From the IMG/VR virus record IMGVR_UViG_3300005573_000058, positions 32,001 to 96,000 of that record: a stretch of 64,000 nucleotides of DNA; one strand, given 5' to 3'. This DNA is from a virus. Position 1 is the first letter of the stretch, and each line of letters starts with the position of its first letter. Positions 29,835-50,291 of the stretch are shown piece after piece. A model generated the notes under the pieces. That model was not told where the DNA came from, did no database searches, and worked only from the letters and a program-made list of their open reading frames with translations. The position numbers were made by a program, and so were the translations under genes.

Positions 29835-30360
29835 TCTATAACAACTGTTGTATACAACTGTTATAATAACTGTTACTACAACTGTTGTATACAACTGTTA
29901 TAACAACTGTTCTATATATATTACAGTTCTTATCATTGTTATGTTGTAATAACTGTTACAATAGTTACATATATATGCTTACGCATATATGTTCAACAAT
30001 GATAAGAACTGTAATATGTAACTGTTATAACAACTGTTCTTATAACTGTTATTACAACTGTTACTACAACTGTTATATAACGATCTTATAATGATCATAT
30101 ATACAACAGCTCTTTATTACTGTAACTGTTACATATATCGCTTACGCTACTGTTGAACAGTAATAAGAACTGTTGCATAGCAGTATATATTGTTGTATAT
30201 AGAACAAATGTAACATTTTATGTTACATTTGTTCTATAGATCATATAATAGATCATATATATAACGTTCTTATAACTGCATATATAGCTATTATATAGTA
30301 TATATATAATATACATAATATATAACTGTTACTATAACTGTTCATGTAACTGTTATATAA
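29835..30360. repeat. Non-coding field of degenerate 12-13 bp repeats (core AACTGTT)
   Basis: e.g. acaactgttgtat-acaactgttata-ataactgttact-acaactgttgtat; many further copies. Confidence 0.75.
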
Positions 30361-32795: not shown

Positions 32796-32829
32796 TTTAT
32801 AGTCATTCTTACACATCGTAGATAGTATA

Positions 32830-33430
32830 GCATATAACTGTTCTAAACAATGATATATTTTAAAATATAGATCAAGTAACGATTGTTACTTGATCATATA
32901 ACTGTTCTAAGTAGTGAATGTTATTGTTCTAATAACTGCTGTTATCTGTTTTTTAACTGTATAAGATAGATGAAATAGATGTATAAGAATGATGATAAAG
33001 ATGTAATAAACAAGATATAGGCTGCGAAAGTAAATATAAGAATGATAGTAGAACATATAGAAATATATAAAACAGATATAGAAAGCATAAAAATGAATAT
33101 AACAATGTAGCAGCAGTTAATGAGCAGGTATAAGAGCAGTATAAGAGCAGAATAGAGCAAGATAAGGGCAGTATAAGAGCAATATAAGAGCAAATAAATG
33201 GAACGACAGTTAATAGAGCAATGTAATGTAGAGCTGATGTAAGAGCAGATATAAGAGCAAGTAGAAGGCGGTGCGGTTTATAGAACAATAACGGCGACAT
33301 AACTTATAGAGCAGGTATAGGAACAGTATAGAGCTGTTATTAGAGCAAAGAAAAAAGAGCGGTGTAAGAACAGGTATAGGAACAATAGAAGAACAATGTA
33401 GAGCAGGTATAAGAACGGCTGAAGCAGGTG
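32830..33430. repeat. Non-coding strand-switch region with degenerate TA(A)GA(G/A)CAG repeats
   Basis: Many tataagagcag / tagagcag / taagaacag copies; the ORF-track ORFs here are low-complexity artefacts. Confidence 0.65.
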
Positions 33431-33472
33431 TGTAGCTATCTGAAAGTCATACTATTATCACGAGTGGTAAGT

Positions 33473-33700
33473 GGTTGTTTTTGATGGTATAGGGCTGTTC
33501 CGAGCCCTAGCCATCAAAAACGACCAAATGAAGCCTATCAACCTGGGCTGCAGGGGTTGATAGGATAGGGCACTGTAGCAACTTTCTCCCATAGCTGCCG
33601 CCCTATGGGAGGAGGGAAAAAAGAAAATGGCGGCAAAAAGGGAGGTAGGTATGTATAAAAAAGAAGAACAAAGGCAGCCAGGTGACACTCCGGCTGCTAA
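33473..33700 (+). ncRNA. GC-rich structured leader/ncRNA with two predicted pseudoknots
   Basis: Hairpins GGTTGTTTTTGATGG..AGGGCT/AGCCCT..CCATCAAAAACGACC, CCTATCAACC/GGTTGATAGG (loop GCTGCAG can pair with CTGTAGC), CTCCCATAG/CTATGGGAG (loop TGCCGCC can pair with GGCGGCA at 33629). Confidence 0.5.
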
Positions 33701-33767: not shown

Positions 33768-34808
33768 ATGAACATAGTAAATACATTCATACATAATATG
33801 AAAAAGAATATGACTACAGAAAATGCAAAAGACTTTGCGCAGATCATGACACTGACAGATGCAAAAGCTCTATGGGACAGCTATAAGAACTTCAAGATGA
33901 TAGAGACAGAGGATAACAACAAGAAGATGGAACAGATACTGATGAAACAGTTGATGAAAGAAGCTGTTGAGGCATTCATAAATAGATATAATGGAACAGA
34001 AATGAGTACTGTAGCTATGACTCCAGAAGAGATAGATACAGCTCTTACAAATATTGAAAGAACAGAAGAAGAGATTGAAAAGAAGATTAAAATGATCATG
34101 AGTAAGATAAATACTGATGATATGATGAAAGTCACAAAGAATTCTATATATGAATTTGTTACAGAAGTTGTAAAAATGAAGAATCCAACAACTGCAGATA
34201 TACTGAAACTTGCTATGAATATGAAAGTATCTACAATGACATCAGATACATTCGGTATTAAATTTGAGAAAGCATTTGCAGAAGCAGTAGCTGCTGTCGA
34301 CAAGATTGCTGGAAAGGAAGCTGTAAAGATAGAAATTGAAAATACAGAAGAATCTAAGATGGTTTCTATCCTTGATGGTGTGTTTAAAGTTGATATACTG
34401 AAGATATTCACAGATGTCATCCACATGATGCAAGTGAAGATGGTCAGAAAGTATAGTGATAGAAAATATAATATAGATCAGATGTTGACAGAAAAAACAG
34501 AAGCTATCAAAATGATGAATATTCTTGAGATGATAATAGAAGAGTTTGCGACAGATGGTAAGATAGATGATAAGACAGATGATAAAAAGATTACATTTAA
34601 AAATAATGTAATATTCTTCGAGAACATAGTGATGGATACAATAATAAACAGTCCACGCAGAAATGAATATGCAGAAGAGATAATTAGATATATTAATAAA
34701 ACAGATATAAAGGACAATGAAATCCTTGTTATTACATATGCCGAGATAAATAGTATTACAAGAGAAGCAGAAGTTACATTTAGAACATTGAAAAAGGAGA
34801 CAGTGTGA
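33768..34808 (+). CDS. Hypothetical Met-rich helical protein, first gene of the plus arm
   Basis: Start moved to the ATG at 33768 (AAGGAGGT RBS); coupled by GTGA to the next gene. Confidence 0.65.
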   Translation: MNIVNTFIHNMKKNMTTENAKDFAQIMTLTDAKALWDSYKNFKMIETEDNNKKMEQILMKQLMKEAVEAFINRYNGTEMSTVAMTPEEIDTALTNIERTEEEIEKKIKMIMSKINTDDMMKVTKNSIYEFVTEVVKMKNPTTADILKLAMNMKVSTMTSDTFGIKFEKAFAEAVAAVDKIAGKEAVKIEIENTEESKMVSILDGVFKVDILKIFTDVIHMMQVKMVRKYSDRKYNIDQMLTEKTEAIKMMNILEMIIEEFATDGKIDDKTDDKKITFKNNVIFFENIVMDTIINSPRRNEYAEEIIRYINKTDIKDNEILVITYAEINSITREAEVTFRTLKKETV

Positions 34809-37396
34809 ACAATAATAAAAATAACAAAATAAATAATAATATGAATACAAATATGAATAACAGAGTGATAATAGCATATACAGACGGATCTTGGACATCT
34901 AACAATCCAAATGTTGCTGGATTTGGTATCGTGATTACAGATATAAATAGAAATGTTGTCTATACAGAGACTGGTGAATTGACAGGTAATATTGTGAAGA
35001 TGAGACAAGTAGCAGGAGAGATGAAAGCTGCTATGAAAGCTGTATATTATGCAATAAACAACAGATATAATGAAATTGTTATCAGATATGACTATGAAGG
35101 CGTCGAAAAATGGGCCACTGGAGCATGGAAAGCAAAGAATGAATGGACTAAGAAATATGCAGAATGGATGAATAACGCGATGAAGAGAATAAGGATCAGA
35201 TTTGAGAAGATTAATGCAGCAGATAATATAGCAGACATGATAGCAAGAGAATCTACTGGAGCAAAGGATGCACATAACAGTGAAAGCAGATTAAAAGGAA
35301 TGTTCAATATGACAATGAAAAAAGATAATAATATGAATAATAACAAAAATAACGATACAGAAAAAGTAAGTCCTATGATTAGAGCAGTAGCGACAGAGGT
35401 AAATAAGATGCTCAATAATGACAACAGAATTAAGAAGATTAACAATGAGTATTGCACAATCGATCTGATTGTTGTAGCAAAGAGAGAAAATTCAGACATC
35501 GTGTCTGTAGCAGCTGAAGCAAGACAAGGCGTGATCAGTATAGAGAATGCAGAGATATATTATAAGAATATGATTAAATTTAAAGGATTCATTCCAACAG
35601 AAGCTGAAATTAAAGCGATAATTGGTGATAGAGAATTCATTTATGTAACTTCCAGTGGTCAAGGTCAGACAGATCCAATTATTATGATAGTTGCAAATGA
35701 TAGAATTAGAGAGGACAGAGAGCTTCTCAAGCTTGTAACGAATAATAAGAAGAAACTGCAAAGAATCAAGCTGCTCATCAGATCTCGTAAGTTCATGTTT
35801 GGTAATATAGGTATTACAGACGTTAAGTTCCTCGAAGATCCTGCTGACAACGATTATAGAACAGATGGTGTTATTTATCTAAATACAGATTTCGTAAGAG
35901 ACTTCAATAAGAAGAACGGTATAGATCTTGTTGGTGCAGAAGTGAAAGGTCTTGTGAAAGGTACTATAATGATGAGAGCAGATATACCATATAATGCTAT
36001 TGGTGTCCCAGTCGAAAATGCTCTCAAGTTCGACACAAGGGATAAGAATCTCATTCTTACACGTTCTGGTATAGCAGAATTTGCTGATTTCAGAATGACT
36101 CATACAAGAGGTCTGCCAATAGAACTTATACATCTTGTGAACAAGAAACTTACAAAGGATGAAAAGATTACAACTGCAGATCTTAAGATCAAGATACATG
36201 ATTCTAAACTCTTACACTATGTGTGGAAGATACCAGAGCTCAGAACAAAGATGATAGTTGAAAAGATCATGGATGAATTCAAAGCTGCTATTGTGAAAGC
36301 ATTCAAGACAGATATAAGGAAAGCTGGTGCTGTAATTGAACCTAAACTTGATCTTGACTATGACGAAGTAGTTGTACCACGCAAGATAGCAGAATGGATG
36401 AATATTAAAGTTGGTGACAAGGTTGCTCTATTCAGATCTCCAATTCCAACTCTGTTCAATCTTGCACAACTTAAAGTTGTAGCAACTACAGAACATAATG
36501 TGATCATGCTCAATCCAGATGTTGTGAAGTTTATACTTCTTGGTGATTATGATGGTGATACTGCCTTTATTATAACAGAACCAAGAATTGTTAAAGTTGC
36601 AACACCACCATCTACAATTATAGATGAAGCAAAGAGACTTGTAACTGAGTATGCAGAGAAAGTAGAAGAAAGGGCAGCTAATGTTGGTGATCTTGATGAG
36701 TATGAAATATGGAATCTGTCTTATAAGAACGCACAGCAGATTGGTAGAGCAACTTATAATCATTGGAGCTATATTGAGAAACATTATACATTCAGAGAAC
36801 AGATGAAGAGCTGGCTCTATAGAGTTCAGATGATCATAGATGCAACTAAATATGGAATCAATATTGGAGAAGTACAGAGCGATCTCGAAAATGAAATATA
36901 TGAAAATATGCTTGTTTCTGGTAAGTTTAGTGCAGAAAGTACCATAGAACTAGTAAATAAGAAGATTAATAGAACAGAAATATTTGGTATCCAAATGACA
37001 GAAGCATTTAAACTTGCATTTAAGAAGATGATTGAATATATGAATAAAGATGTTGATACAGCTGATATGAATAGAATTAGAAAGTTTACTAACGATGCAA
37101 TAGAACTGATTAAGAAACAAGGAAAGACAAAGATCTTAGATGAATATCTACTTACACTTTATAGAGATAAGAAATTTAATACTATAAAAACTATGATAGA
37201 AACAGATACTGAAAATAAGATCGATAGATTTATACTTGCTATTGCTGCACTCAGAGTATGGAACTATCCATGGAATGTTGGTATAGCAGAATTTGTGAAT
37301 CCAGATCTTATTGAAAAGCTTTATAATATAGAACATGCTAATTTCGAAGATGAAGAGCCAGAAATAGGAATAGATATTGATCAGGAGGAGATATGA
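34805..37396 (+). CDS. RNase HI domain fused to a single-chain two-barrel (YonO/eRdRP-like) nucleotide polymerase
   Basis: N-terminal IIAYTDGSW, RQVAGEMKA, RYDYEGV..W, N.IADMIA (RNase HI D-E-D-D residues); then TDGVIYL, EVKGLVKG, ALFRSPIP, LGDYDGD (DxDGD at 36545-36559). Confidence 0.75.
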   Translation: MNNNKNNKINNNMNTNMNNRVIIAYTDGSWTSNNPNVAGFGIVITDINRNVVYTETGELTGNIVKMRQVAGEMKAAMKAVYYAINNRYNEIVIRYDYEGVEKWATGAWKAKNEWTKKYAEWMNNAMKRIRIRFEKINAADNIADMIARESTGAKDAHNSESRLKGMFNMTMKKDNNMNNNKNNDTEKVSPMIRAVATEVNKMLNNDNRIKKINNEYCTIDLIVVAKRENSDIVSVAAEARQGVISIENAEIYYKNMIKFKGFIPTEAEIKAIIGDREFIYVTSSGQGQTDPIIMIVANDRIREDRELLKLVTNNKKKLQRIKLLIRSRKFMFGNIGITDVKFLEDPADNDYRTDGVIYLNTDFVRDFNKKNGIDLVGAEVKGLVKGTIMMRADIPYNAIGVPVENALKFDTRDKNLILTRSGIAEFADFRMTHTRGLPIELIHLVNKKLTKDEKITTADLKIKIHDSKLLHYVWKIPELRTKMIVEKIMDEFKAAIVKAFKTDIRKAGAVIEPKLDLDYDEVVVPRKIAEWMNIKVGDKVALFRSPIPTLFNLAQLKVVATTEHNVIMLNPDVVKFILLGDYDGDTAFIITEPRIVKVATPPSTIIDEAKRLVTEYAEKVEERAANVGDLDEYEIWNLSYKNAQQIGRATYNHWSYIEKHYTFREQMKSWLYRVQMIIDATKYGINIGEVQSDLENEIYENMLVSGKFSAESTIELVNKKINRTEIFGIQMTEAFKLAFKKMIEYMNKDVDTADMNRIRKFTNDAIELIKKQGKTKILDEYLLTLYRDKKFNTIKTMIETDTENKIDRFILAIAALRVWNYPWNVGIAEFVNPDLIEKLYNIEHANFEDEEPEIGIDIDQEEI

Positions 37397-37722: not shown

Positions 37723-38420
37723 ACAATAATATTAATATAACTATGAAGAATCTTATGAAACAGATCCATGAATATATGAAGCAGATTCATGAACATAATA
37801 GCAGAATAAGTCATGAACAGAAGTTACAGAGAGAGATAAAAGATAATAGAAAGTTGATAATCAGATGGCTACAAGCATATGAAGTTGTTGATAAGACATA
37901 CGATGAAATATTTGAATATGAATTCAGTACAGCAGATAAGATAGAGAAAGCAGCAGAGGTAGTGATAAATAAGAAACATATGGATCATGTAAAAGTCGGA
38001 TTATTGTTCAATCATAAAGCTGTAAGAAGAACATTCAAAGGAGATGTATTTTCAATGTCAGGAGAACAGTTGAAAGATCTATTGAACAGATATGTGAGAG
38101 CGATGAAAGATGAAAACAATAGTGAGGATAGTTTAACAGAACAGTTCTTTAAGATGCATCATCTGAATGTACATACTGTTGAACAGATAGATGACAACAG
38201 ATTATATAAAACACAGAAAGCAGGTGGAGTTGTTCGTGAGTGCTGGGTCAGAGGTAGAATAATAGGTATAGTACTTAGAGATAGAATAAATCATATTTAC
38301 AACGAAAAAGAAGGACAGTTAATTATAGATGTATTAAGAACAGCGTTAGAATATGCGAAAAAGAACAATATACCAGTTTACATAATAGATGATAGGCAGC
38401 AGAGAGTATATATGGCATAA
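37719..38420 (+). CDS. Hypothetical protein
   Basis: 233 aa, GTGA overlap, AAGGAGG RBS. Confidence 0.6.
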   Translation: MNNNINITMKNLMKQIHEYMKQIHEHNSRISHEQKLQREIKDNRKLIIRWLQAYEVVDKTYDEIFEYEFSTADKIEKAAEVVINKKHMDHVKVGLLFNHKAVRRTFKGDVFSMSGEQLKDLLNRYVRAMKDENNSEDSLTEQFFKMHHLNVHTVEQIDDNRLYKTQKAGGVVRECWVRGRIIGIVLRDRINHIYNEKEGQLIIDVLRTALEYAKKNNIPVYIIDDRQQRVYMA

Positions 38421-38430
38421 CAATTTAAAA

Positions 38431-38750
38431 AAGCATCAGATATACATACTAGACGCATGCACTGTCGTGCACTGTAAGTGCATATGCATGTGTTACCTTT
38501 CTTAAGGTAACATGTGCATGGTGCATGTTGTTAGTATCTATATCTGATGCTTGGGTGTTGGCCTCACCCTTAAAAAAGGCCCGTTAGTTCAGGTGAGGTT
38601 CCGGACGAGAACATAGGAACCCCGGGGGCAGTAGCCCTGACATCGACAGCGGGCACTAATGTGCACCACGCTGTCGATTTTTTTCTTCCTGGCAGTCCTT
38701 AAGCTGCAGGAGGACATAAGTCCAGGAAGAGAAAATGGTAACTGCAGCAA
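38431..38750 (+). ncRNA. Large structured intergenic RNA-like element (long hairpin, pseudoknots, internal terminator)
   Basis: About 120-nt hairpin AAGCATCAGATATA...TATATCTGATGCTT; GGGTG/CACCC with loop GGCCT pairing AGGCC; GGTTCC/GGAACC; ATCGACAGCG/CGCTGTCGAT plus T-tract; TCTTCCTGG/CCAGGAAGA with GCTGCAG pairing CTGCAGC at 38742. Confidence 0.55.
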
Positions 38751-38821
38751 AAAACAAGAGCGATGGCATGGTGCCATCGCTCTAAACTTTGCTGCCTTTT
38801 ATGGCGGCAGAAGGAGGAGGT

Positions 38822-39199
38822 ATGTCTTTGTTGAAATTTGATGTCAAAAAAGTTATTATCACAAAAAATGAGATAAAAGTTGAAAAAAATGTTGTTGAAG
38901 CGATTAAAAAAGTTGCGGATATATCTTATAAGATGTATCCGCTTAAGAAAATTGTATGGATAAAGATTGACGATTTATGCGTTATAAGTCAAAATCCTAA
39001 AGGTAGAAGTATATATGCTAAGTTAGTAAGTAAAAACATAATAGGAATATATAGAGTAGGATGGATTGTTAAAGATAAAAAGGGTAAAAGAGAGTGGGTA
39101 GCAAAATATTTTTTGCGACCTAATCGAGAAAAAAATATATTTGAACTGGAAATCTACAAGCCAGGTTCGAAGATACCTGGCTTAGATGACAGGAAGTAA
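38822..39199 (+). CDS. Cassette 1 hypothetical protein (paralog of 44565-44996)
   Basis: ATG at 38822 with AGGAGG; SQNPKG.S.YA.LVS.N.IG.YR.GWI...AKYFLR.NR...LEIY.P...G.DDRK shared with the paralog. Confidence 0.7.
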   Translation: MSLLKFDVKKVIITKNEIKVEKNVVEAIKKVADISYKMYPLKKIVWIKIDDLCVISQNPKGRSIYAKLVSKNIIGIYRVGWIVKDKKGKREWVAKYFLRPNREKNIFELEIYKPGSKIPGLDDRK

Positions 39200-39420
39200 A
39201 ATAAATATGGTGGGTGGATAGGTTTGTTATTCTATCCCCCCCACCATATTCCCTCCAGGGAGAGTAGCGATTATGTATTGTTGCTACTCTCACTATGGGG
39301 AAGGAATAAACACACAGGCAACTGAAAATATGGTTGCCTGTGTTAATGGTTTTTAAAAAATTTGATAGGAACAGTGAGGTTCTATTCCTTCTGTTCCTAT
39401 CATAAAAATAAGGAGGTATT

Positions 39421-39756
39421 ATGTTAATTGTGTGTAACAGTTTTAGCACAAATATGTTAAATTCTTTTAATGATGAATCAGTTATCAGTTTCCGAAAAAT
39501 TTCCTTGCAAGAAGCAAGGAAATTCGTAGAAGACGCTGAGAGCGTCTCATCAGCTGTCGGCCATGCGCCGACTGCAGAAGTATTCTCTAAGTTGTTGGGA
39601 ATTAGAATAGAAACGAACAGGACCGAGATAAAACTCGGTCCTGAAACTGTCTTACTAATAGGTAGCCTCGGAACGAGGCTACCTGAAGGAAGAATCCTGT
39701 CCAAGGAAGAGCTTGAAGCTCTTCCAATTATTTGGTGGGTCGCCTCATTGGTTTAG
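39421..39756 (+). CDS. acrIII-1: AcrIII-1-family (DUF1874/YddF) cyclic oligoadenylate ring nuclease, anti-CRISPR
   Basis: ML.V.NSFS.NML, SAVGH..TA...S.LLG.....NR..IKL, L..RLPEGRIL...EL: signature of DUF1874, including the catalytic GH. Confidence 0.85.
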   Translation: MLIVCNSFSTNMLNSFNDESVISFRKISLQEARKFVEDAESVSSAVGHAPTAEVFSKLLGIRIETNRTEIKLGPETVLLIGSLGTRLPEGRILSKEELEALPIIWWVASLV

Positions 39757-39991
39757 GCAACCCACCAAAGAGAAGCCCCTTTCAGGGCTTCTCTTTTTGC
39801 CCCCCGCCATAGAGTTCCACAGTAGCCTGCGGGGGGCTTGTTCATACTACAGATGTAACATATGTAACAGTTGTATGAACAGAAGATTTCATTACTGTTC
39901 ATACAACTGTTGTATCTGCTTAAAACGGTTTTTAAAAAATAGAAATAGCAGGTTCTACTCCTGCTACTTCTATTATAAAAAAGGAGGTTGT

Positions 39992-40171
39992 ATGAAAAAA
40001 GAAGGAAAAATAGTAGTTAGGTTTGGAAGGTCTGATCCTGATGGAATAAGCTACTACTGTTTTCAAGAAGATAAAACTTATTACTCAGGATACTTTGATA
40101 TCATAGAAATAGAATTAAGTATAGAAGAGTGGAAAAAACTGAAAAGTCAATTAAAAACCCACAGCTGCTAA
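39992..40171 (+). CDS. Cassette 3 small hypothetical protein (59 aa)
   Basis: ATG at 39992 after AAGGAGGT; the track's longer N-terminus is translated repeat. Confidence 0.6.
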   Translation: MKKEGKIVVRFGRSDPDGISYYCFQEDKTYYSGYFDIIEIELSIEEWKKLKSQLKTHSC

Positions 40172-40383
40172 ACTGTGGGTTTTTTCTTTTTGCCCCCCGC
40201 CCTAGCCAATCCAAAGTAGCTGGCGGGGGGCTTGTTCATATTAAAGATGTAACAGAAGTATGAACAGAAGTTTTATTACTGTTCATACAACTGTTGCATC
40301 AATAGAGGTTTTTAAAAAAAGAGCAATGACAATGGTGTCATTGCTCTAAACAGCTGCCTTACGGCAGCAAAAAGGAGGTTTTT

Positions 40384-40920
40384 ATGATAAAAGAAGTTCA
40401 TGTAAACATATATGAAGTAATCATAAGAAAACTGGATACACCTTCTGACATATCTAAAGATGAAGCTATGATATACTTACAACTTGCGAAAGATAACGAT
40501 AATTATTACAGAAACGCAAAAAGAATTTATGAAAAGTTCAAAGATGATCCTGAGATAAGAAAAGAACTGCTCGAAAATGGTTTTACAGATCCTAAATTCT
40601 TATGGTCGTTAAGCGAAGACGAAATTAAAAATGCAAGAAAAGATTACAGATTTGCATTGGAAATAGTGTATAATATGACAGCGAAGGAAATCAGAGATGT
40701 TATACAAAGATGGAAGAAGGAAGAGGAAGAAATAGAAAGAAAGAGGAAAGAAGAAGAAAAAGAAGAAGCAAAAAGAATTGCTGAAGAGCTAGAAATTACA
40801 AAAGAAGATATAATAAGCAAGCCAGTAGAAGTAATCAAAAGGATAAGAATTATGAAAAATGCATATTTAAAAGAAGCAAAAGAAGTATTTGATAAAATAA
40901 AGAAAGTCCTCCTTGAGTGA
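40384..40920 (+). CDS. Cassette 4 protein with C-terminal ribosomal L7/L12 CTD-like motif
   Basis: KPVEVIKRIRIMKNAYLKEAKEVFD resembles the bL12 CTD pattern K..VIK.VR....LKEAK..V. Confidence 0.55.
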   Translation: MIKEVHVNIYEVIIRKLDTPSDISKDEAMIYLQLAKDNDNYYRNAKRIYEKFKDDPEIRKELLENGFTDPKFLWSLSEDEIKNARKDYRFALEIVYNMTAKEIRDVIQRWKKEEEEIERKRKEEEKEEAKRIAEELEITKEDIISKPVEVIKRIRIMKNAYLKEAKEVFDKIKKVLLE

Positions 40921-41144
40921 GGACTTTCTTTTTTTGTTACAGTAATCAGCCCGCCGCCACAGAATTTCAAAGCAGCCTGCGGCGGGCTTGTTTTTAAAGA
41001 TGCAACAGATGTATAGACAGAAGATTTTAATATAGTTCATACATCTGTTGCATCTGCTTAAAACGGTTTTTTAAAAAACAAGAGCGATGGCATGGTGCCA
41101 TCGCTCTAAACCTTGCCATCATATTGATGGCAAAAGGAGGTAAT

Positions 41145-41546
41145 ATGAAGAAGTATGATGCTATTTGTTTGTTAAAGAAAATTGGAACAACCAAAGAAAA
41201 CTTTGAACAAATGCCAAAAGAAGAAATAGTAGAAAAAATTTATAAGGAACTGAATACATATAGTTTACAAACTGCGAATGATTTATATAAAGAGATAAAG
41301 GAATCTGTTCACAAAGAAGTTGATATAAAAGAAGCTTTAACTGATTTCTCAAATAAAGTTGAAGCTGCTGATAAAAATGCTTACGATATAGAGTTTATTT
41401 ACGACATGTTGGATGCTGTTATAGAATTGCTACAAGACTTAGGATATGAAATTGACAAAGATATATCCAAAAGATTATGGAGAACGTTAGGTGAAATGAA
41501 GATCATTTGTGAAAAATATGAAAGTAAAAAGAACGCTCTCAACTGA
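41145..41546 (+). CDS. Cassette 5 hypothetical protein
   Basis: ATG at 41145 after AAGGAGGT. Confidence 0.65.
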   Translation: MKKYDAICLLKKIGTTKENFEQMPKEEIVEKIYKELNTYSLQTANDLYKEIKESVHKEVDIKEALTDFSNKVEAADKNAYDIEFIYDMLDAVIELLQDLGYEIDKDISKRLWRTLGEMKIICEKYESKKNALN

Positions 41547-41763
41547 GAGCGTTCTTTTTTGTTACAGTAATCCGCCCGCCGCCCCAGCTTATCCAAAGCA
41601 GCCTGCGGCGGGCTGTTCATATTACAGATGCAACAGATGTATGAATAGAAGATTTTAATACAGTTCATACATCTGTTGTATCAACAGAGGTTTTTAAAAA
41701 AATCGGTAGGAACAGTAAGGTTCTATTCCTTCTGTTCCTATCTGTAAATAAAAGGAGGTATTT

Positions 41764-42510
41764 ATGAACCTAAAAGAATTTTATTTTAAAGAAGGAAATA
41801 AAGTAACAGTAAGCAGAGAAGTACTAAATGATTATGATAAATACAATGTTAGTTACAACGGAAAAACATGGACATTTGATATAGGTGAGGATGTGAATGG
41901 TCTAGAAGAAATACTAAATAAGACAGATCTTGCAGAAGACGAAAAACTTGCTCTACAACTGTCCATAGAAAAAACATCACTGTTAAGAGAGATGTTTCCA
42001 GATATAAAAATGATAAAAGAGATGATAAAAGAGACAAAAGAAAACGAAAGTAGAAAAGAGAGAGTAAGATCAAGAGTAACAGTTGTAGAAGAAAAAGTAT
42101 ACGAAGAAATAAAAGATCTAAGAGAAGAGAAGAAAGAAAGGTTAGAGCAGATGAAAGAAGAAGCGGAAGAAAAATACAATGAAATAAGGAAAGAAATGAA
42201 AGAAGATGAAATGATAAAAGAAGAACATGAATGCTCATTTGGCAATATAATTATCACAAAGAATATCAAAAGAGAGATAAGTCCAGTTGACTACGCAGAA
42301 GAAATTTCAGTGCTCAAAGAGCATGAAATATACATCAGAGATCCTGAAAAAGGACCGCTACTCCAAAGGATAACTGATGTATCTGACACGTACGCTTACT
42401 ACTACTTCGATATAAAGACAGAAACGAAAACGACTATAAATATAGAATTTAAAGCTGATATACCTGATCACATAATTAATGATATTAAAAAATACTTAAA
42501 AATAAAATAG
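41764..42510 (+). CDS. Cassette 6 hypothetical coiled-coil protein
   Basis: 248 aa, E/K-rich, AAGGAGGT RBS. Confidence 0.65.
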   Translation: MNLKEFYFKEGNKVTVSREVLNDYDKYNVSYNGKTWTFDIGEDVNGLEEILNKTDLAEDEKLALQLSIEKTSLLREMFPDIKMIKEMIKETKENESRKERVRSRVTVVEEKVYEEIKDLREEKKERLEQMKEEAEEKYNEIRKEMKEDEMIKEEHECSFGNIIITKNIKREISPVDYAEEISVLKEHEIYIRDPEKGPLLQRITDVSDTYAYYYFDIKTETKTTINIEFKADIPDHIINDIKKYLKIK

Positions 42511-42581
42511 GTTTTAAAAAAAATGATAGGAGCAAACAGGTTCTACTCCTGTTGCTCCTATCAAAAAATAAAGGAGGTTGT

Positions 42582-42983
42582 ATGGACGAGAAGATTTATA
42601 ATACGTACTTTTGGTGGAAGGGGTATATACTTGCCCCTTCAATGGTGAGGGAATTAAAGAGTTTCCTTCCCAGTATTCAAGAATACTGGGAAGCTCTGAA
42701 AAGGAACTCCAGATACATTCTAACTGATTTACAAAGAGATGGATTAGATAGAAGAAAGGAGGTAGTGGAGAAAATTTACAGGAGAGCTGTAAAGAAATGG
42801 ATAAATCTCTTTACAGATCCGAATCTTGATATGACTTCAGACGAGGATTTTATAATCTTCTTAAAGATGCTAGTTGACTGTCTGAAACCATACAGCAAAT
42901 ATGTTGGCGAGCGAAAAGATCGCCAATACATTAAAAAGATCTTGACGAAGATAATAGAAGAATACTACGAAGAAAATAAATAA
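42582..42983 (+). CDS. Cassette 7 hypothetical protein
   Basis: ATG at 42582 after AAGGAGGT. Confidence 0.65.
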   Translation: MDEKIYNTYFWWKGYILAPSMVRELKSFLPSIQEYWEALKRNSRYILTDLQRDGLDRRKEVVEKIYRRAVKKWINLFTDPNLDMTSDEDFIIFLKMLVDCLKPYSKYVGERKDRQYIKKILTKIIEEYYEENK

Positions 42984-43196
42984 GAAGCCCCTTTCGGGGC
43001 TTCTTATTCCGCCCCCCGCCACAGCCTACTCACAGTAGCCGGCGGGGGGCTGTTCATATTACAGATGTAACAGAAGTATGAACAGAAGTACCATCATTGT
43101 TCATACTCCTGTTGCATCAATAAAAGGTCTTCAAAAAAGATAAGAACAAGAAAGGTTCCACTCCTTCTGTTCTTATCTGTAAAATAGGAGGCATAT

Positions 43197-43352
43197 ATGA
43201 AAAATAAAGACTAAAAAAGAAAAGAAAAACTTGAAAGAATAAAAGAACTAAGAAGATACAATGGCAAAATACCTGCTGAGAAGATTTTCATAAAAAGAAG
43301 TACCAAGCATGACAATGACTGGAAATATGAAACATATGAAACTGATGAATAA
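43197..43352 (+). pseudogene. Cassette 8: homolog of 51616-51831 with an in-frame TAA at codon 6
   Basis: AGGAGG-ATG; MKNKD*KRKEKLERIKELRRYNGKIPAEKIFIKRSTKHDNDWKYETYETDE* versus ...KIKRIKSMSRSRIPSVKIMHRSKRHENDWKY. Confidence 0.6.
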
Positions 43353-43590
43353 AAAGAAACCTTTATGGTTTCTTTTTTACTGCAGCAGCCCCCCGCCTCA
43401 GCCTACTCACAGTAGCCGGCGGGGGGCTTGTTCTTATTACAGATGTAACAGGTGTATAGACAGAAGATCTTATATCATCTGTTTATACACCTGTTATATC
43501 TGTTGATGGGTTTTTAAAAAATAATAAAGAGCAGTTGCATGGTGCAACTGCTCTAAACTGCAGCTATATGCTGCAAGAAAGGAGGATGTT

Positions 43591-44055
43591 ATGATAGTAT
43601 TCATAGGAAAAAGCTACAAATTAGATAACGGAGACTTACTGATATCATCGTATGGCAAGTATGAGCCAGACATGCTGATACTAGTTCCAAAAAACCATGT
43701 GCAAATTTCAAAGATAGTCGACGAAGAAAGATACTACGTTGACATAGAAGTAAAAGAAAACGAAAATATAAAATTTAGTGCGAACTGTGTAAAGATCGTC
43801 CCAGGAACATTTGGAAAGACGAAAAAAGGAGCTGATATTTTTAAGATTGATATAAATGGTCCTCATCTACTTATAGAAGTCCAATGGGGCGGAAGCTTCA
43901 GGACGACCGATGGCAGGTTAGAATCTCCCATAGACGAAACGAAGATAATAAAGAAGATCAGGAAAAGTTCGCATGGAGGTGGATTAGGAAATACGTATTA
44001 TATATTCGACAGGAAGTACTATGAGAGTTATACACCAAATATAGATGATTTTTGA
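43591..44055 (+). CDS. Cassette 9 hypothetical protein
   Basis: 154 aa; G....TKKG...F, HLLIEVQWGG.F, S.GGGLG..Y motifs. Confidence 0.65.
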   Translation: MIVFIGKSYKLDNGDLLISSYGKYEPDMLILVPKNHVQISKIVDEERYYVDIEVKENENIKFSANCVKIVPGTFGKTKKGADIFKIDINGPHLLIEVQWGGSFRTTDGRLESPIDETKIIKKIRKSSHGGGLGNTYYIFDRKYYESYTPNIDDF

Positions 44056-44210
44056 TATATCCACCCCGCCGCATCAGCCATTCATAGTAGCAGGCGGCGG
44101 GGTTTGCTCTTTAAAAGTGCAACAGATGTATATATAGAAGATCTTATATCTGTTTATACATCTGTTGCATTTGTTGATCGGTTTTTTAAAAAATAAAAAA
44201 GGAGGTATAT

Positions 44211-44384
44211 ATGAAACATGTTACAAAAGTTGTATTGTTTGTAGCTTTTGGTGCAATTGTTGTAGCCTTGTTCTGCAGCAAATGGTTATTGAAAGGCCTT
44301 GTATGGACTAACAGAAAGTTAAATCAATTGATAAATAAAAACAAGGCCTACACCAAAAGTTATAAAAATAATAATCAGCCTTAG
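44211..44384 (+). CDS. Cassette 10 small membrane protein (57 aa)
   Basis: Manually translated MKHVTKVVLFVAFGAIVVALFCSKWLL...; AAGGAGGT RBS; too short for the ORF track. Confidence 0.55.
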   Translation: MKHVTKVVLFVAFGAIVVALFCSKWLLKGLVWTNRKLNQLINKNKAYTKSYKNNNQP

Positions 44385-44564
44385 CAACAACGCCCGCCGC
44401 CATAGAGTTTCACAGTAGCAGGCGGCGGGCTGTTACTGAGCATTAAAAAGGCTGATTGCTACAGTTATGTAGCTGTTTGTGTATCGGTTTTTAAAAAATA
44501 AAGAGCAGTAACATGGTGTTACTGCTCTAAACCTGCAGCTATATGCTGCAAAAAAGGAGGTTGT

Positions 44565-44996
44565 ATGAATTTTAATTTTAATTTTAACAAGTTATTTAAG
44601 AAATTTACTGGATCGAAAGCTACAAGAATAAAATTCGATCCAGAGAAAGTTGTTGTTTCTGTAAATGAAGTTAATGCAGATAAGAAGACTGTTGCTACAA
44701 TAATAGAGGTAGCAACTGAAACGTACAAGCAATTTCCAGCAAAGGATGTTGTAACAAAGAAAACCGGTGATCTATATATATCCAGCCAGAATCCAAAAGG
44801 AAAAAGCTCATATGCTGATCTTGTTAGCAGAAATGTAATAGGTGCATATAGATTAGGATGGATATATGCGAAAGATGGTAAAAATATAATCTGGAAGGCA
44901 AAGTACTTCCTTCGCGCAAATCGGAAGGAAGGTAATTTCCAACTCGAGATCTATCAACCGAATTCTATGATAAAAGGTATCGACGACAGGAAGTGA
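44565..44996 (+). CDS. Cassette 11 hypothetical protein (paralog of 38822-39199)
   Basis: Clear colinear similarity to cassette 1. Confidence 0.7.
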   Translation: MNFNFNFNKLFKKFTGSKATRIKFDPEKVVVSVNEVNADKKTVATIIEVATETYKQFPAKDVVTKKTGDLYISSQNPKGKSSYADLVSRNVIGAYRLGWIYAKDGKNIIWKAKYFLRANRKEGNFQLEIYQPNSMIKGIDDRK

Positions 44997-45000
44997 GCAT

Positions 45001-45032
45001 AAGAGCCCCACAGTAGTGGGGCTCTCTTTTTT
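45001..45032 (+). terminator. Intrinsic terminator closing the array
   Basis: AGAGCCCCAC-AGTA-GTGGGGCTCT plus T-tract. Confidence 0.75.
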
Positions 45033-45213
45033 TAGAACAGAAGAATAAAAGAACAGAAAAACAGAAATAGAACAGAAGTGAAACCCCACAAAAGCAGTTA
45101 AAATTGAACATTTTTCAACTTCTTTCACCACTCATCCCCACTTAACTGCTCTATTTTTAACTTTTTCTACTGCTTTTGTGGGGTTTCAAAAAATCAAAAA
45201 ATTAAAAAATTAT

Positions 45214-45288
45214 GGCCTCGTCGTCTAAATGGTTTAGGACTCCAGCTTTTCAAGCTGGAAATGGTGGGTTCAAGTCCCCCCGAGGCTA
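45214..45288 (+). tRNA. trnE: tRNA-Glu (TTC), CCA not encoded
   Basis: Acceptor GGCCTCG/CGAGGCT, D arm GTCT..TGG..GGAC, anticodon stem CCAGC/GCTGG with loop TT-TTC-AA, T loop GTTCAAGTC. Confidence 0.85.
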
Positions 45289-45310
45289 TAATAAAAGAAA
45301 AGGAGGTAAT

Positions 45311-46187: not shown

Positions 46188-46260
46188 ACTGCTCATACAA
46201 CTGATATAAAAGAGATATATGAACTATGATGTTACTCTATTAATTGTTTTCTTATATATA

Positions 46261-46457
46261 TACTACTACTATATATATATTATTATTAATATATATATAT
46301 AGTAGTAGTAATAGGTATAAAATTTTTATAAGCTGTTGAAAATCAATCATCGTTATGTGGAAAAAATGTGGAAAAGATGTGGATAAAATGTGGATAAAAA
46401 TTTTTATCAACAGGTTTTCCACAGGTTTTCCACATAGTTATCCACAGGTTTTCCACA
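46261..46457. promoter_or_regulatory. oriC-like element: AT-rich palindrome plus 9 phased DnaA boxes
   Basis: TACTACTACTATATATATA...TATATATATAGTAGTAGTA (46261-46310); TGTGGA(A/T)AA at 46356, 46367, 46378, 46389; TT(A/T)TC(C/A)ACA at 46404, 46415, 46426, 46438, 46449. Confidence 0.8.
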
Positions 46458-46975
46458 TAAGTTGTATGAACAGACAGAAGTATAATTTTACTGATTACTA
46501 TCTGATATAAAAGGCGGGGCGTCGTAAGACGACGTCACCGCCGCCATAAAAAAACAGTTAATAGAACAATGTCGCTGTAGTAACAGTTGTTAGAACGACA
46601 CTGCTATAGTAACAGTTGTTAGAGCAAACATAGAATAAAATAAAGTAACAGTTACTGCTACAGCTATAGCAGTATTAAGCAACTGCCACTGTTACAGTTA
46701 TAATTTTATTAGCGTCTTGTGACATTTTATTAGAAATGTCAAAAAAATAAGAACAGTTGTTATAGCAACAAATGATATGGTAATATCAAGATCTAATCTA
46801 TCAGCAATTGCTGATAGATTAACATAGAACCAATCAAAAAGTACTCAGAAAGGGGAAGACGTGTAAAACTGCTTACTTCTGTAAGAATAAAAGTTAAGTT
46901 TAGACATAATAAACATGTTAGATATCAGTTACTTGCAACAAGTTATTAAACTGATACTTCAACGTCAATTGATTT

Positions 46976-47075
46976 CAATTGCAACTGCCACTGTTCATAT
47001 AACTGCTACAATTGCAACTGCCATTGTTCATATATCTGCTACAATTGCAACTGCCATTGTTCACCTATCTGCTAC
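46976..47075. repeat. Three tandem 33-bp repeats
   Basis: CAATTGCAACTGCCA(C/T)TGTTCA..TA.CTGCTA x3. Confidence 0.75.
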
Positions 47076-47487
47076 AAGTGAATATAAGATATAGAATATC
47101 TAGATATCTGTCTATCCGCTCGATAGCGGATAGACAGCTGAAGAACGACTATAGGCGTTTTGCTCACTTCAAGTGAGATAATAATGTAAGTTTAGATATA
47201 AGAATATATAGCTATAGAATAGCAAATAGAGCAAATTGCTACTGCCAAGAGTAAAGTAGCAATTTGCGCAGTTATGAAAAAAACTGCGAAAATAAAGTTA
47301 AGTTAAGTTATATATATATTAAGATGTCATCAGCAACAAGAACATTGCAATGCTAAATAATATAAATAAATAAAATAAAAGTCATAATGATGTAATTAAT
47401 GTAATAATGTAACTGTTATTGCTACAGTAACTGTCATAAAGAATAGTAAAACAAAAGAAAAAAAATAATAATAAATGCTACTGCCGT

Positions 47488-47625
47488 AGTATCTGTTATA
47501 AAGAGCAACTGTTATGCTGTAATATCTATTATAAAAGGCGACTGCCACTGTAGTAATATCTGCTATAAAAGGCGACTGCCACTGCTGTAATATCTGCTAT
47601 AAAAGGCAGGCGTCATACTGCTGTA
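47488..47625 (+). repeat. About four degenerate 32-34 bp repeats containing GGCGACTGCCACTG
   Basis: TAATATCT(A/G)(T/C)TATAAAAGGCGACTGCCACTG with cores at 47537 and 47571 plus degenerate flanking copies. Confidence 0.7.
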
Positions 47626-47660
47626 AAACATAATAAATATTGTCAGTAGGAGGTAAAAAT

Positions 47661-47876
47661 ATGATATTATATCAGCTGTTTGTTAATTTGAACTTGTATT
47701 CTATCTGTAGTAAATGTGTATTTACTGGGTGTGCATTATATGAAAACAACTGTTTTAGGAATAAATCAAAGTTAAATAACGTTAGTATACGTTTATATCA
47801 GGAATATTATAACATTGTACGTGTAAAAACGATGGATGAATATATAGCAGTAGATGGTACATCGCAACTTATTTGA
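47661..47876 (+). CDS. Small Cys-rich protein, family member 1
   Basis: ATG at 47661 after AGGAGGT; YQL.VNLN...CSKC...C.....C. Confidence 0.55.
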   Translation: MILYQLFVNLNLYSICSKCVFTGCALYENNCFRNKSKLNNVSIRLYQEYYNIVRVKTMDEYIAVDGTSQLI

Positions 47877-48030
47877 TATTTTAGCTGTAACTATGATAAA
47901 AGATAGCAAATGTCCGTTGTAACAGTAGTAAGAGCGGCTTGTGGCAGTTGTAAGAGCAGCTTATAGCTACTGTATGTAGCTGTAACTATTATAAAAGCAG
48001 TTTACAACAGCAGCACGAGCAGCCAGTTGT

Positions 48031-48226
48031 TGCTCATATAACTGCTACAAGGAGAAATTGTTCTAATAACTGTTACAAAGAGATATTGTTCATATAACTG
48101 TTACAAAGAGATACTGTTCTTATAACTGCTGTATAGATACATTGCTCTTATAATTGCTACAAAGAGATATTGCTCTAATAACTGCTACAAAGAAATACTG
48201 TTCATATAACTGCTGTATAGATATCG
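48031..48226. repeat. Seven tandem 28-bp repeats (iteron-like)
   Basis: TG(T/C)TC..ATAACTG(T/C)TACAAAGAGATA. at 48031, 48059, 48087, 48115, 48143, 48171, 48199. Confidence 0.8.
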
Positions 48227-48282
48227 TTTTATGATTTTTGTTCAAACTGTCAAAAAAAATTGATATAAAAGGCAGGTGTAAT

Positions 48283-48465
48283 ATGAAAATAAATGTAGAA
48301 TTGTTAAATATTCAAATGAAACTATTTTGTCAGCATTGTTACTATGATATTACATCTAGATGTTATCAATATGAAAGAATAGATGGTAAGATAAATTTAA
48401 TATGTACATTATTAAATATTGTAGAACATAGTATTAGTAAATTGTCTAAAATACAGGAGGTATAA
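48283..48465 (+). CDS. Small Cys-rich protein, family member 2
   Basis: MKINVELLNIQMKLFCQHC...C...C. Confidence 0.5.
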   Translation: MKINVELLNIQMKLFCQHCYYDITSRCYQYERIDGKINLICTLLNIVEHSISKLSKIQEV

Positions 48466-48466
48466 T

Positions 48467-48655
48467 ATGAGAGTACAAGTTCAGATTTGTTTTTATGATA
48501 TAAACATAGATGGTACAAACTGCTACTTTAGAGAATGTAAGTATATGTATGATGATTCTTGTAAACTGAAATTGAATAGAAAAATGAAAAGTTTTCAATA
48601 TCTATGTGATATATTATATCAGTTTAAGAGGATTATGTTAGAAATAGTGAGGTAA
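48467..48655 (+). CDS. Small Cys-rich protein, family member 3
   Basis: MRVQVQICFYDINI...C....C...C...LC; AGGAGGT RBS. Confidence 0.55.
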   Translation: MRVQVQICFYDINIDGTNCYFRECKYMYDDSCKLKLNRKMKSFQYLCDILYQFKRIMLEIVR

Positions 48656-48657
48656 AT

Positions 48658-48945
48658 GTGAAGATATCTGTTCAATATTGTTATTATGATTTAAATATAA
48701 GTTCATCTCATTGGTGTAGAAACTGTAGATATTCATATACGTTGTCTTCGAAAGTAAATCATGATATATCAGAAATTTGTCGTTGTAGTATAAATGTAAA
48801 GCGTGAGCGATTAGATGATATAAGTATATATAACAGGTATAACACTTTGAAATATTATATTTACTTTTTATATAGCTATTTATGTTCTACATTGTTGTTA
48901 AGTAGAAAAGAGCTGATAAAGATAGTTGAAGAGATAACTGTATAA
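48658..48945 (+). CDS. Small Cys-rich protein, family member 4
   Basis: MKISVQYCYYDLNI...CRNC...C...LC. Confidence 0.55.
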   Translation: MKISVQYCYYDLNISSSHWCRNCRYSYTLSSKVNHDISEICRCSINVKRERLDDISIYNRYNTLKYYIYFLYSYLCSTLLLSRKELIKIVEEITV

Positions 48946-48972
48946 AACTGTTGTATAAAGAGGAGGAAAGAT

Positions 48973-49209
48973 ATGTTGATTAGATTACAACTTCTGTTTA
49001 TTGATGTAAATGTAGACATAAGAGAAGTAACAGCTTATTGTAATCGTTGTGTAACTGATAAATCTGTATGTGCATTACTGTTAAAAAGTCATTATAAGAC
49101 TGTATTTCACTACGATAAAACGACTATTGAATATAATAGTTGTACTGTATGTAGTATATTATTTGATACTAGTAAGAGTTTGTTATTTAGTTTAACAGCT
49201 GATAAATAA
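48973..49209 (+). CDS. Small Cys-rich protein, family member 5
   Basis: MLIRLQLLFIDVNV...CNRC...C...CTVC; AGGAGG RBS. Confidence 0.55.
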   Translation: MLIRLQLLFIDVNVDIREVTAYCNRCVTDKSVCALLLKSHYKTVFHYDKTTIEYNSCTVCSILFDTSKSLLFSLTADK

Positions 49210-49850: not shown

Positions 49851-50027
49851 AAATGTTCTGCTTGCCTCATCTAACTTCTTGTGCTTCTGTAGTTTTAGCT
49901 GTTCTGTTTGATGGTTTTTAAAAAATGTTTTTAAAAATTTTAAAATGGGAGGTTAATCAGAATAGCTAAAGAGATTGGGTATATTAATTAAAAAATAAGA
50001 AAAAAAATAAAAAAAAAGGAGGTAAAT

Positions 50028-50291
50028 ATGGTCAGTTTAGCACAAAGGAAGGTATTGGCCAAGAAAGGGTTAGTGTTAGATGTTGATAACCTCAAATGGC
50101 CAATACAAGATATTACAAGAGCAAAGGCCGCAAAAGTATACTCAGCCAAGTTATATAAGCAGCATATGATAAGTAAGGCTGAGTATGCCAAGATTCAGCA
50201 TGCCGCCAATGCTGCAATAAAAATTTATAAAAGCGGCGGCAGCCAAGCAGATGTTGCTAGATATATCGACCGTTATAATTTATATGTTTAA
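50028..50291 (+). CDS. Small basic hypothetical protein
   Basis: 87 aa; AAGGAGGT RBS. Confidence 0.6.
   Translation: MVSLAQRKVLAKKGLVLDVDNLKWPIQDITRAKAAKVYSAKLYKQHMISKAEYAKIQHAANAAIKIYKSGGSQADVARYIDRYNLYV

Follow-up and report, generated by a model that had tools for sequence, protein, structure and literature searches.

Eleven small genes of a hot-spring phage lie in single-gene units with a shared, structured scaffold

Long hairpins between small early genes are a feature of several phage genomes. In the T7 early region, with its RNase III sites, and in SP82 and SPO1, whose early mRNAs are processed, such hairpins separate small early genes that share one strand and have strong Shine–Dalgarno (SD) sequences. 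These regions use one promoter cluster and have no terminator after each gene. A second arrangement, the PeSL (promoter-early stem-loop) cassette, is known from the T4-type phages RB49, phi1, T4/PST and KVP40/nt-1 (PMC2839356; PMC4122927). A PeSL is a composite terminator/promoter unit that has a G/C-tract stem-loop and consensus sigma-70 −35/−10 elements with an AT-rich region upstream, ends in an SD and a start codon, and recurs ahead of small ORFan genes within one region (PMC2839356). The same sources show recombination between repeated units, mini-circles and exchange between relatives (PMC2839356; PMC4122927). A third precedent is the Thermus phage P23-45. For this phage, a published report assigns 14 pre-early starts with a conserved AT-rich motif to a virion RNA polymerase (RNAP) and seven start sites with a GC-rich motif to gp64, and lists seven termination sites with a conserved 26-nucleotide (nt) motif (PMC10770324). 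Here, we describe an array of 11 single-gene units in the IMG/VR virus record IMGVR_UViG_3300005573_000058. The window analysed is a stretch of 64,000 nt, bases 32001–96000 of this 138,661-bp linear record, which is estimated to be ~80% complete. All positions are window coordinates.

The array occupies 38.8–45.0 kb. Using the sequence, a repeat finder and an alignment of the spacers, we identified 11 + strand open reading frames (ORFs) of 51–248 codons. All 11 have AAGGAG(G) 5–6 nt ahead of the ATG. We call these genes cargos 1–11 and the 11 spacers upstream of them IG0–IG10. Nine of the ten internal spacers measure 155–235 nt, compared with a median same-strand gap of 24 nt genome-wide (from a crude gene call). 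In the spacer alignment the modules follow one order: terminator hairpin, GC repeat, linker, AT palindrome, box, leader hairpin and SD. A first-pass annotation of this DNA, made from the letters alone, had described 11 single-gene units with a shared, ordered scaffold, and all three approaches bear this out. Its picture of the same ordered parts in most spacers is correct overall but needs correction in places. IG6 is limited to box, leader and SD, a terminator is missing from IG9 and IG10, and IG1 and IG10 carry other hairpins instead of some modules.

Terminators, defined as a hairpin with a T-run, follow seven of the 11 genes. Gene 1 is followed by a hairpin with no T-run, and genes 6, 9 and 10 have neither. 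The GC-rich inverted repeat is present in eight spacers (IG2, 3, 4, 5, 7, 8, 9 and 10). Its arms are 9–10 bp long and the loop of ~20–22 nt contains CA(A/C/T)AG(T/C)AGC in every copy. In seven spacers (IG2, 3, 4, 5, 7, 8 and 9) a TTGTTCATATTA-type linker is followed by an AT-rich palindrome of 55–70 nt. The box, GGTTTTTAAAAAA, occurs in ten spacers, with six exact copies and four that differ by one or two bases; in IG0 it is interrupted. Two classes of leader hairpin follow the box. Leader A (n = 5) has a 12–16-bp stem and a 7-nt loop, TTC(T/C)A(T/C)T, closed by GG/CC. Leader B (n = 5) has the form AGAGC-N5-CA/TGG/TG-N5-GCTCT, and continues with AAAC and a second GC-rich hairpin. No leader hairpin is present in IG9, where the SD directly follows the box. 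In per-copy folds, leader stems begin 0–7 nt 3′ of the box, which is the most conserved element.

Apart from one extra box, the scaffold signals are confined to the array. Allowing at most one mismatch, the window contains 14 matches to the box, some of them overlapping, where 0.75 would be expected, and none of 100 shuffles reached 14. In the whole record, the box pattern has 11 + strand matches; ten are in the array and one is at 49913. The latter (49913–49925, +), the sole exact copy beyond the array, has no leader hairpin and precedes an 87-amino acid (aa) gene (50028–50291) by 102 nt. The single − strand match is a loose GGTCTTAAAAAA within a coding region. A covariance model of the GC repeat found eight + strand copies, all in the array, at 59.7–67.3 bits. 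On the − strand, the same sites score far lower (17.9–26.7 bits). Hence, the repeat is oriented. A model of the box with leader B scored its five copies at 79–102 bits. When the genome was compared with itself by BLAST, the scaffold was found nowhere outside the array, and all copies fall within 38.7–44.6 kb. No match to 38400–45300 was found by blastn against 50,697 phage records, and protein and pattern scans of IMG/VR for relatives found none. Two looser IMG/VR patterns returned 119 and 118 stretches, all single chance matches, and these were not used.

The stems of the scaffold keep their pairing. All four hairpin classes fold far better than shuffled sequences (z from −4.1 to −9.6, with ~−4.1 for the GC repeat). 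In the GC repeat, 76 of 80 alignment cells are paired; at one pair, four copies have C-G where the other four have G-C (CCCCCCGC vs CCCGCCGC), and another position is switched in one copy. The AT palindrome has 146 of 154 cells paired, with five pairs changed on both sides. Leader B has 60 of 60 cells paired and four pairs changed on both sides, with no wobble. For leader A, two misaligned rows degraded the MAFFT/RNAalifold counts, which understate pairing. We relied instead on per-copy folds, in which leader A adopts the same shape in each copy despite differing stem sequences. These counts come from 5–8 related copies in one genome and show that pairing is kept, be it in RNA or in DNA. The data support selection on the structure of the scaffold stems. 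They also agree with the first-pass annotation, which had noted eight GC repeats (matching both the spacer counts and the covariance model), compensatory stem changes (found in the GC repeat, AT palindrome and leader B) and a scaffold that it did not recognise. At gathering score, Rfam identified a tRNA alone; at E ≤ 1 it added only sub-threshold generic hairpins, such as miRNA precursors.

We consider it fairly probable that the array is a block of small early genes, for takeover and anti-defence, organised as self-contained expression units. Cargo 2 (39421–39756, +; 111 aa) is, from its sequence, a clear member of the STIV_B116-like AcrIII-1/DUF1874 family of anti-CRISPR ring nucleases. It matches Pfam PF08960 at 69.9 bits (cut-off 26) and phrog_5063. 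Matches found by phmmer include PDB entries 2j6b, 2x4i, 6scf and 2j85, with AVGH aligned to AIGH/SIGH. The His of the aligned Gly-His motif is presumably catalytic, as in the AcrIII-1 family. Membership of this family fits an early anti-defence or takeover block. The other ten cargos have no Pfam or PHROG function. The earlier suggestion of anti-defence and takeover cargo thus stands for cargo 2, and ten cargos remain without a family.

How might the units be expressed? Terminator-like sites number 23, against 4.1 expected from shuffles. Between 38400 and 45300 there are 19 sigma-70-type sites, against 22.5 expected, and none is at a fixed place in the scaffold. A host-type (sigma-70) promoter was rejected because such sites are neither enriched nor fixed in place. 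By inspection, copies differ by 4 nt in the distance that separates TTG(C/T)AT, in the right arm of the palindrome, from the box. The box is conserved, is not of the sigma-70 type, adjoins the leader and has a precedent in P23-45. Hence, we take the box to be a putative phage-private promoter. Its reader would be a phage polymerase or a phage-modified host enzyme, and not an unmodified sigma-70-type holoenzyme. Transcription would start at or just after the box, so that the mRNA would begin with a stable leader hairpin. Either leader B (12-bp stem, TGG loop, second hairpin) or leader A (12–16-bp stem, T-loop-like 7-nt loop) would both shield the 5′ end and display the strong SD. Transcription from the preceding unit would be stopped or insulated by the terminator and by the GC hairpin, in whose loop CAnAGYAGC is conserved. 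The AT-rich palindrome would most likely be an operator through which a phage DNA-binding protein switches these promoters. Finally, homologous recombination between scaffolds may duplicate, delete or swap cargos, as in T4-type PeSLs, because each gene sits between near-identical scaffolds of ~200 nt.

Two other interpretations of the box were considered. The box as the tail of a + strand terminator was rejected; the palindrome ends 5–13 nt before the T-run, and a terminator here would shut the gene off. Read on the − strand, leader hairpin and box together resemble terminators (seven sites). There is no − strand gene nearby and, hence, we regard this likeness as a by-product. An archaeal TATA-box reading of TTTTTAAA was set aside, given the DnaA-box-like repeats, bacterial-type terminators and strong SDs. 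Furthermore, a start ~25 nt downstream would land within the leader stems.

The phage encodes small polymerases of its own. Genes for the tail sheath, major head protein, portal and large terminase are on the − strand in the first 33 kb. Hence, this is a myovirus-type phage. Its GC content is ~26–38%, and two public runs, both of hot-spring metagenome DNA, hold the stretch. From 33.6 kb onward, genes run on the + strand. The second of these (34805–37396, +), 1.4 kb upstream of the array, encodes an 863-aa protein in which an RNase H-like domain is joined to a two-barrel (GDYDGD) RNAP (Pfam RVT_3 and RdRP; PF05183 match, 2.3e-6). A second small two-barrel RNAP of 695 aa is encoded at 53436–55523. 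The two are paralogues (25% identity over 456 aa, E = 3e-25) and both keep the GDYDGD loop. A profile built from the 863-aa enzyme and its four nearest relatives matched the tape-measure virion RNAP fragment of P23-45 (8h2m, E = 2.8e-4). The next matches were catalytic loops of eukaryotic RNA-dependent RNA polymerases and Pol IV/V, and there was no match to P23-45 gp64 at E ≤ 1. The 863-aa polymerase is a candidate reader of the box or of the GC repeat.

Relatives of this polymerase are distant. An exhaustive search of 1.8 billion representatives found a nearest relative of 35% identity, a word-index protein search returned the query itself alone, and a metagenome scan found nine loci of 25–37% identity. 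Metagenome contig L248 (8782–9058 and 10153–13731) carries an RNase H-RNAP relative with 32% identity. This contig has its own 22-nt iteron array, with five tandem paralogous genes of ~260 aa downstream, and no modules of the array scaffold. A likeness of the GC-repeat loop to an L248 hairpin was not borne out.

We turn now to the AT palindrome. Its arms consist of two 12-nt units of the form ACAACTGTTGCATC / ATTACTGTTCATAC, which belong to an iteron, A(C/T)AACTGTTnnAn. This CTGTT iteron fills three noncoding regions besides the array. At 29845–30350, the unit A(C/T)AACTGTTnnAnnAA, of the same family, occurs in at least 18 direct copies with 12–13-nt spacing; the field (29830–30360) sits in a noncoding gap of ~800 nt within the − strand module. 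A reverse-oriented field of similar units is found at 32.8–33.4 kb. Related TGTTCATATAACTG units, as TGTTCATATAACTG(C/T)TAC, form iteron arrays at 46976–47077 (3 × 33 nt) and 48030–48220 (~7 × 27–28 nt), near a cluster of DnaA-box-like repeats (46350–46450). The density of CTGTT is 17.8 per kb in array spacers vs 4.9 per kb genome-wide (3.6-fold). Similarly, TGTTCATA has 29 copies in the genome, with ten in the array and five at 46465–48199. Since its arms are built of an iteron used elsewhere in the genome, the AT palindrome is an inverted pair of di-iterons. Judged by this sequence, it is probably an operator for an iteron-binding protein.

The same distributions (the 18 direct copies, the units beside the DnaA-box-like repeats and the copies of TGTTCATA shared with that region) would suit palindromes that are mainly sites for replication or DNA organisation. 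Briefly, an initiator- or nucleoid-like iteron protein would bind an extended origin/partition region near the DnaA-box cluster at 46.3 kb, and the expression signals would be the box, leader and SD alone. We think this very unlikely. Iterons of the array have a constant position in the scaffold, where they form inverted pairs immediately ahead of the box; this is the geometry of an operator, not of an origin. The idea also explains one module only, and is compatible with a private promoter in each unit.

Several points weigh against promoters read by a phage polymerase in an early gene block. The two public runs that hold the stretch are both DNA, and the genes are taken to be early by analogy. 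The box is unlike the P23-45 motif and could act in RNA rather than DNA. There is no T-run after the GC repeat, and its role as insulator or second terminator is a guess. The polymerase gene is upstream of the array, not inside it as in P23-45. Neither the nine relative loci nor the P23-45 region contained a scaffold module in motif scans and searches with two covariance models. The best match to the GC-repeat model scored 14 bits (E = 0.16), and matches to the leader model scored at most 21.6 bits, at SD sites. Hence, there is no co-variation of signal and enzyme to lean on. A covariance-model search in relatives, which the first-pass annotation had advised, thus gave no copy of the scaffold at the nine RNAP loci. 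Covarying positions of the palindrome outside the iteron are unexplained by a simple operator. Finally, the palindrome has 13 G-T vs 2 A-C cells on the + strand, which hints at a transcribed + strand RNA. If the palindrome is transcribed, the start site would be upstream of it, or there would be read-through.

The G-T excess is of interest for an alternative, in which, as in the T7 early region or SP82, one long transcript starts upstream, in IG0 or before the polymerase operon, and is processed at the scaffold, with the phage RNAP ignoring terminators. The AT hairpin would be an RNase III-type cut site, and the AU-rich box a site of single-stranded cleavage or ribosome standby. The terminator-like and leader hairpins would be protective 3′ and 5′ ends of monocistronic mRNAs. 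Consistent with this, every module is strictly on the coding strand, and in none of the seven AT hairpins, of 20–29 bp, is the + strand fold weaker than the − strand fold. IG6 retains box and leader but lacks a terminator, as an internal processing site would, and the box of IG0 is disrupted though gene 1 must still be expressed. However, the canonical GC hairpin and T-run behind seven of the 11 genes, enriched over shuffles, would stop most polymerases. The hairpin arms are a DNA iteron, found also in direct-repeat fields that are unable to form hairpins. In addition, six of the 13 G-T cells come from two columns with an almost fixed G partner. The G-T excess is therefore weak, and we downgraded it as proof of an RNA hairpin. 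We regard processing of a single long transcript as unlikely, and prefer a private promoter and terminator for most units.

Modules of the scaffold have been reassorted. All four combinations of GC stem type with leader type are present. Both GC stem types are found with one and the same linker, and with nearly the same loop. The leaders of IG0 and IG4 are 98% identical over 44 nt, ahead of unrelated genes. Cargos 1 and 11, at the two ends of the array, are paralogues with 51% identity. Hence, recombination between scaffolds has happened. By our analysis, mosaicism of this type is what homologous recombination or gene conversion among ~200-nt repeats produces, and PeSLs are known to recombine in this way (PMC2839356). 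The comparison with PeSL cassettes made in the first-pass annotation is apt in this respect; composite units, module reassortment and cargo paralogues are all present.

That annotation had also raised integron-like recombination. The units would then be site-specific mobile cassettes, with the GC repeat or AT palindrome as the folded recombination site. Stem changes that conserve structure, single unrelated cargo genes (one anti-defence) and mosaic modules are all in keeping with such a system. However, the 138.7-kb record (~80% complete) contains no match to the tyrosine (PF00589) or serine (PF00239) recombinase families, for which controls matched in 14 of 14 and 12 of 14 genomes, respectively. 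The earlier remark that no integrase is visible in the window thus extends to the whole record. Contigs of the two DNA runs, examined for excised cassettes as had been advised, contained no well-anchored excision joint; these assemblies break at repeated modules. The joints seen had anchors of 20–25 nt at low-complexity or repeat positions, and were taken as repeat or foreign matches. Furthermore, the palindrome is built of a DNA iteron, integron cassettes are promoterless whereas each unit here brings its own expression signals, and ordinary homologous recombination between ~200-nt repeats explains the mosaicism. We conclude that integron-like mobility is extremely unlikely.

A bolder form of our proposal, which we think quite unlikely, would give a new clade of small two-barrel phage RNAPs a full set of private signals in this scaffold. 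The T5A6 box and the palindrome just ahead of it would be a promoter read partly via DNA structure, and the GC hairpin (CAnAGYAGC) a polymerase-specific terminator or insulator. A CTGTT-iteron protein would link promoter shut-off to events at the iteron fields close to the origin-like region. A tRNA-handling factor, brought in by the T-loop-like leader, would stabilise or process early mRNAs at high temperature.

The spacers and cargos are described here in order along the + strand. The entrance spacer, IG0 (38421–38821), is 401 nt long and folds at −187 kcal/mol. It comprises a structured element (38431–38750), the interrupted box (GGT, 9 nt, then AAAAAAC), leader B (38757–38783), a second hairpin (38788–38811) and an SD. 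The element is a very structured noncoding stretch of ~320 nt, with a 120-nt compound hairpin (38431–38552) and further GC-rich hairpins; it has no Rfam match at gathering score. Cargo 1 (38822–39199) encodes 125 aa. IG1 (39200–39420) lacks the GC repeat and AT palindrome. It has a hairpin with no T-run (39205–39249), two hairpins of its own, the box (39348–39360), leader A (39363–39402) and an SD, and leads to cargo 2.

IG2 (39757–39991) contains a terminator (39770–39798), GC repeat (39799–39838), AT palindrome (39850–39918), box (39927–39939), leader A (39940–39972) and SD. The left arm of this palindrome has an insertion of ~10 nt. Cargo 3 (39992–40171; 59 aa) follows, and its end is overlapped by the terminator (40153–40191) of IG3 (40172–40383). 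IG3 continues with the GC repeat (40192–40232), AT palindrome (40246–40300), box (40307–40319), leader B (40320–40347), second hairpin and SD. Downstream is cargo 4 (40384–40920; 178 aa), which is Lys/Glu-rich. In IG4 (40921–41144), a terminator (40899–40936) is followed by a GC repeat with a G-type stem (40949–40988), AT palindrome (40998–41055), box with T6 (41065–41078), leader B (41081–41107), second hairpin and SD. Cargo 5 (41145–41546) encodes 133 aa, and its stop codon is overlapped by the terminator (41530–41560) of IG5 (41547–41763). The remaining modules of IG5 are the GC repeat (41574–41614), AT palindrome (41627–41682), box (41689–41701), leader A (41705–41742) and SD.

Cargo 6 (41764–42510) is 248 aa long. 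The minimal spacer IG6 (42511–42581) has no terminator, GC repeat or AT palindrome; the box (42510–42522) overlaps the stop codon of the gene before it, and leader A (42524–42563) and an SD precede cargo 7 (42582–42983; 133 aa). IG7 (42984–43196) begins with a terminator-like hairpin with a weak T tract (42982–43009), then has the GC repeat (43011–43051), AT palindrome (43064–43118), a variant box, GGTCTTCAAAAAA (43126–43138), leader A (43139–43177) and SD. Cargo 8 (43197–43351) is a 51-codon frame with TAA at codon 6, after which it is open for 45 more codons. Thus, the first-pass statement that each unit has a small ORF holds for 11 frames, with the reservation that the eighth is interrupted. 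Cargo 8 is probably a dead gene, recently inactivated inside an intact scaffold.

IG8 (43352–43590) has a terminator (43353–43378), GC repeat (43388–43428), AT palindrome (43439–43503), box (43509–43521), leader B (43528–43554), second hairpin and SD, and cargo 9 (43591–44055) encodes 154 aa. In IG9 (44056–44210), where there is no terminator, the GC repeat (44062–44103) and AT palindrome (44115–44172) are followed by a box with T6 (44180–44193) and the SD. Contigs of both DNA runs that are 5–20× deeper match ~35 nt of the box and SD of this spacer (44183–44218) and diverge on both sides. They could come from an abundant organism that matches here through low complexity, or from a related element. 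Cargo 10 (44211–44384; 57 aa) has a hydrophobic N-terminal half and is a probable membrane peptide. IG10 (44385–44564) also lacks a terminator. It has the GC repeat (44392–44431), a different short hairpin (44458–44473), box (44486–44498), leader B (44502–44528), second hairpin and SD, ahead of cargo 11 (44565–44996; 143 aa). No family was assigned to cargos 1, 3–7 and 9. Within the limits of a word-index protein search of 5.8 billion clusters, which returned the query alone, cargo 11 has no homologue, and a look at the ESM Atlas yielded nothing useful on cargos 6 and 9.

A closing terminator (45002–45033, +) ends the array, with a 10-bp GC-rich stem, an ACAGTAG-like loop and a T7 run. The stretch behind it (45034–45289) has four GAACAG repeats, an inverted repeat with 25-nt arms (45079–45103 / 45164–45188) and three phased A6 tracts, and then tRNA-Glu(TTC) at 45213–45289. 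Further downstream, 46240–46310 is an almost pure AT palindrome. After it, to 46460, two blocks of opposite orientation hold about nine DnaA-box-like repeats in phase (TGTGGAAAA / TTATCCACA types), and 46458–46480 is a fragment like the left arm of the array palindrome. Four small Cys-rich ORFs (47661–47876, 48467–48655, 48658–48945 and 48973–49209) are found in the region 47661–49209, between iteron arrays; they share common C-x-C patterns and are paralogue-like in appearance. On the other side, upstream of the + strand polymerase operon, the noncoding region 32800–33450 is full of reverse-oriented TATAAGAGCAG / TATAGAGCA / TAAGAACAG repeats. A GC-rich structured stretch (33440–33620) comes directly after it.

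The array offers a clonable set of candidate promoters, leaders and terminators for very small cell-type RNAPs of a thermophilic phage, one of them RNase H-fused, and the set is testable in vitro. Ten small genes of unknown function, beside an AcrIII-1 anti-CRISPR, are marked as candidates for early takeover or anti-defence. Among phage early-gene cassette arrays, this is a thermophile example with unusually rich RNA/DNA structure, in which repeated units may drive gene shuffling.

With integron attC sites the array shares single-gene units bounded by imperfect palindromes of conserved structure. Unlike in integrons, no integrase was found in the record, units have their own signals and terminators, and the palindromes are inside an upstream regulatory scaffold. 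The array differs from the T7 and SP82/SPO1 early regions in that most genes have their own terminator and conserved box. It is closer to PeSL cassettes. There is a G/C stem-loop, here in the form of eight GC repeats with a conjectured role as insulator or second terminator. Units end in an SD and ATG, ten of the 11 cargos have no family, and all are clustered in one region. The repeats offer homology for recombination, and module reassortment and cargo duplication are seen. However, PeSLs carry a sigma-70 promoter, where the array has a 13-nt T5A6 box instead. Hence, the array is not a PeSL by definition. Three conserved modules are additional in its scaffold of ~200 nt, namely the GC repeat with its constant loop motif, the palindrome made of iterons and the leader in two classes.

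Phage P23-45 is likewise a thermophilic phage with two-barrel RNAPs, and has a row of small genes near a polymerase gene, with a terminator hairpin and AT-rich motif before each. In our own reading of its sequence, genes 64–77 are preceded by a conserved hairpin and T-run, which in some spacers is followed by a second hairpin, and YTTATTCYTTT adjoins the start codon. Within EU100883 (37.0–42.0 kb), two of five pre-early spacers folded have a second hairpin of 8–11 bp (CTCCGTAC...GTACGGAG) between terminator and T-rich motif. A third folded pre-early spacer has a hairpin that abuts the T-rich motif, so that hairpin precedes AT-rich box as in the array. In both phages a conserved motif that is not of the sigma-70 type is confined to the region; in the array, there are ten boxes and one nearby, on the + strand only. 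The motif sequences differ. That of P23-45 is at the start codon, whereas the array box is followed by a structured leader of 30–60 nt and a strong SD. The polymerases are distantly related, and the phage described here is a myovirus. We conclude that the overall layout is known from other phages and that the signals are private to this phage. Particular to the array are its five-part scaffold, with an oriented GC hairpin of conserved loop, a palindrome whose iteron recurs in origin-like regions and a choice of two structured leaders, of which one is T-loop-like, and its association with an RNase H-fused mini two-barrel RNAP in a thermophile.

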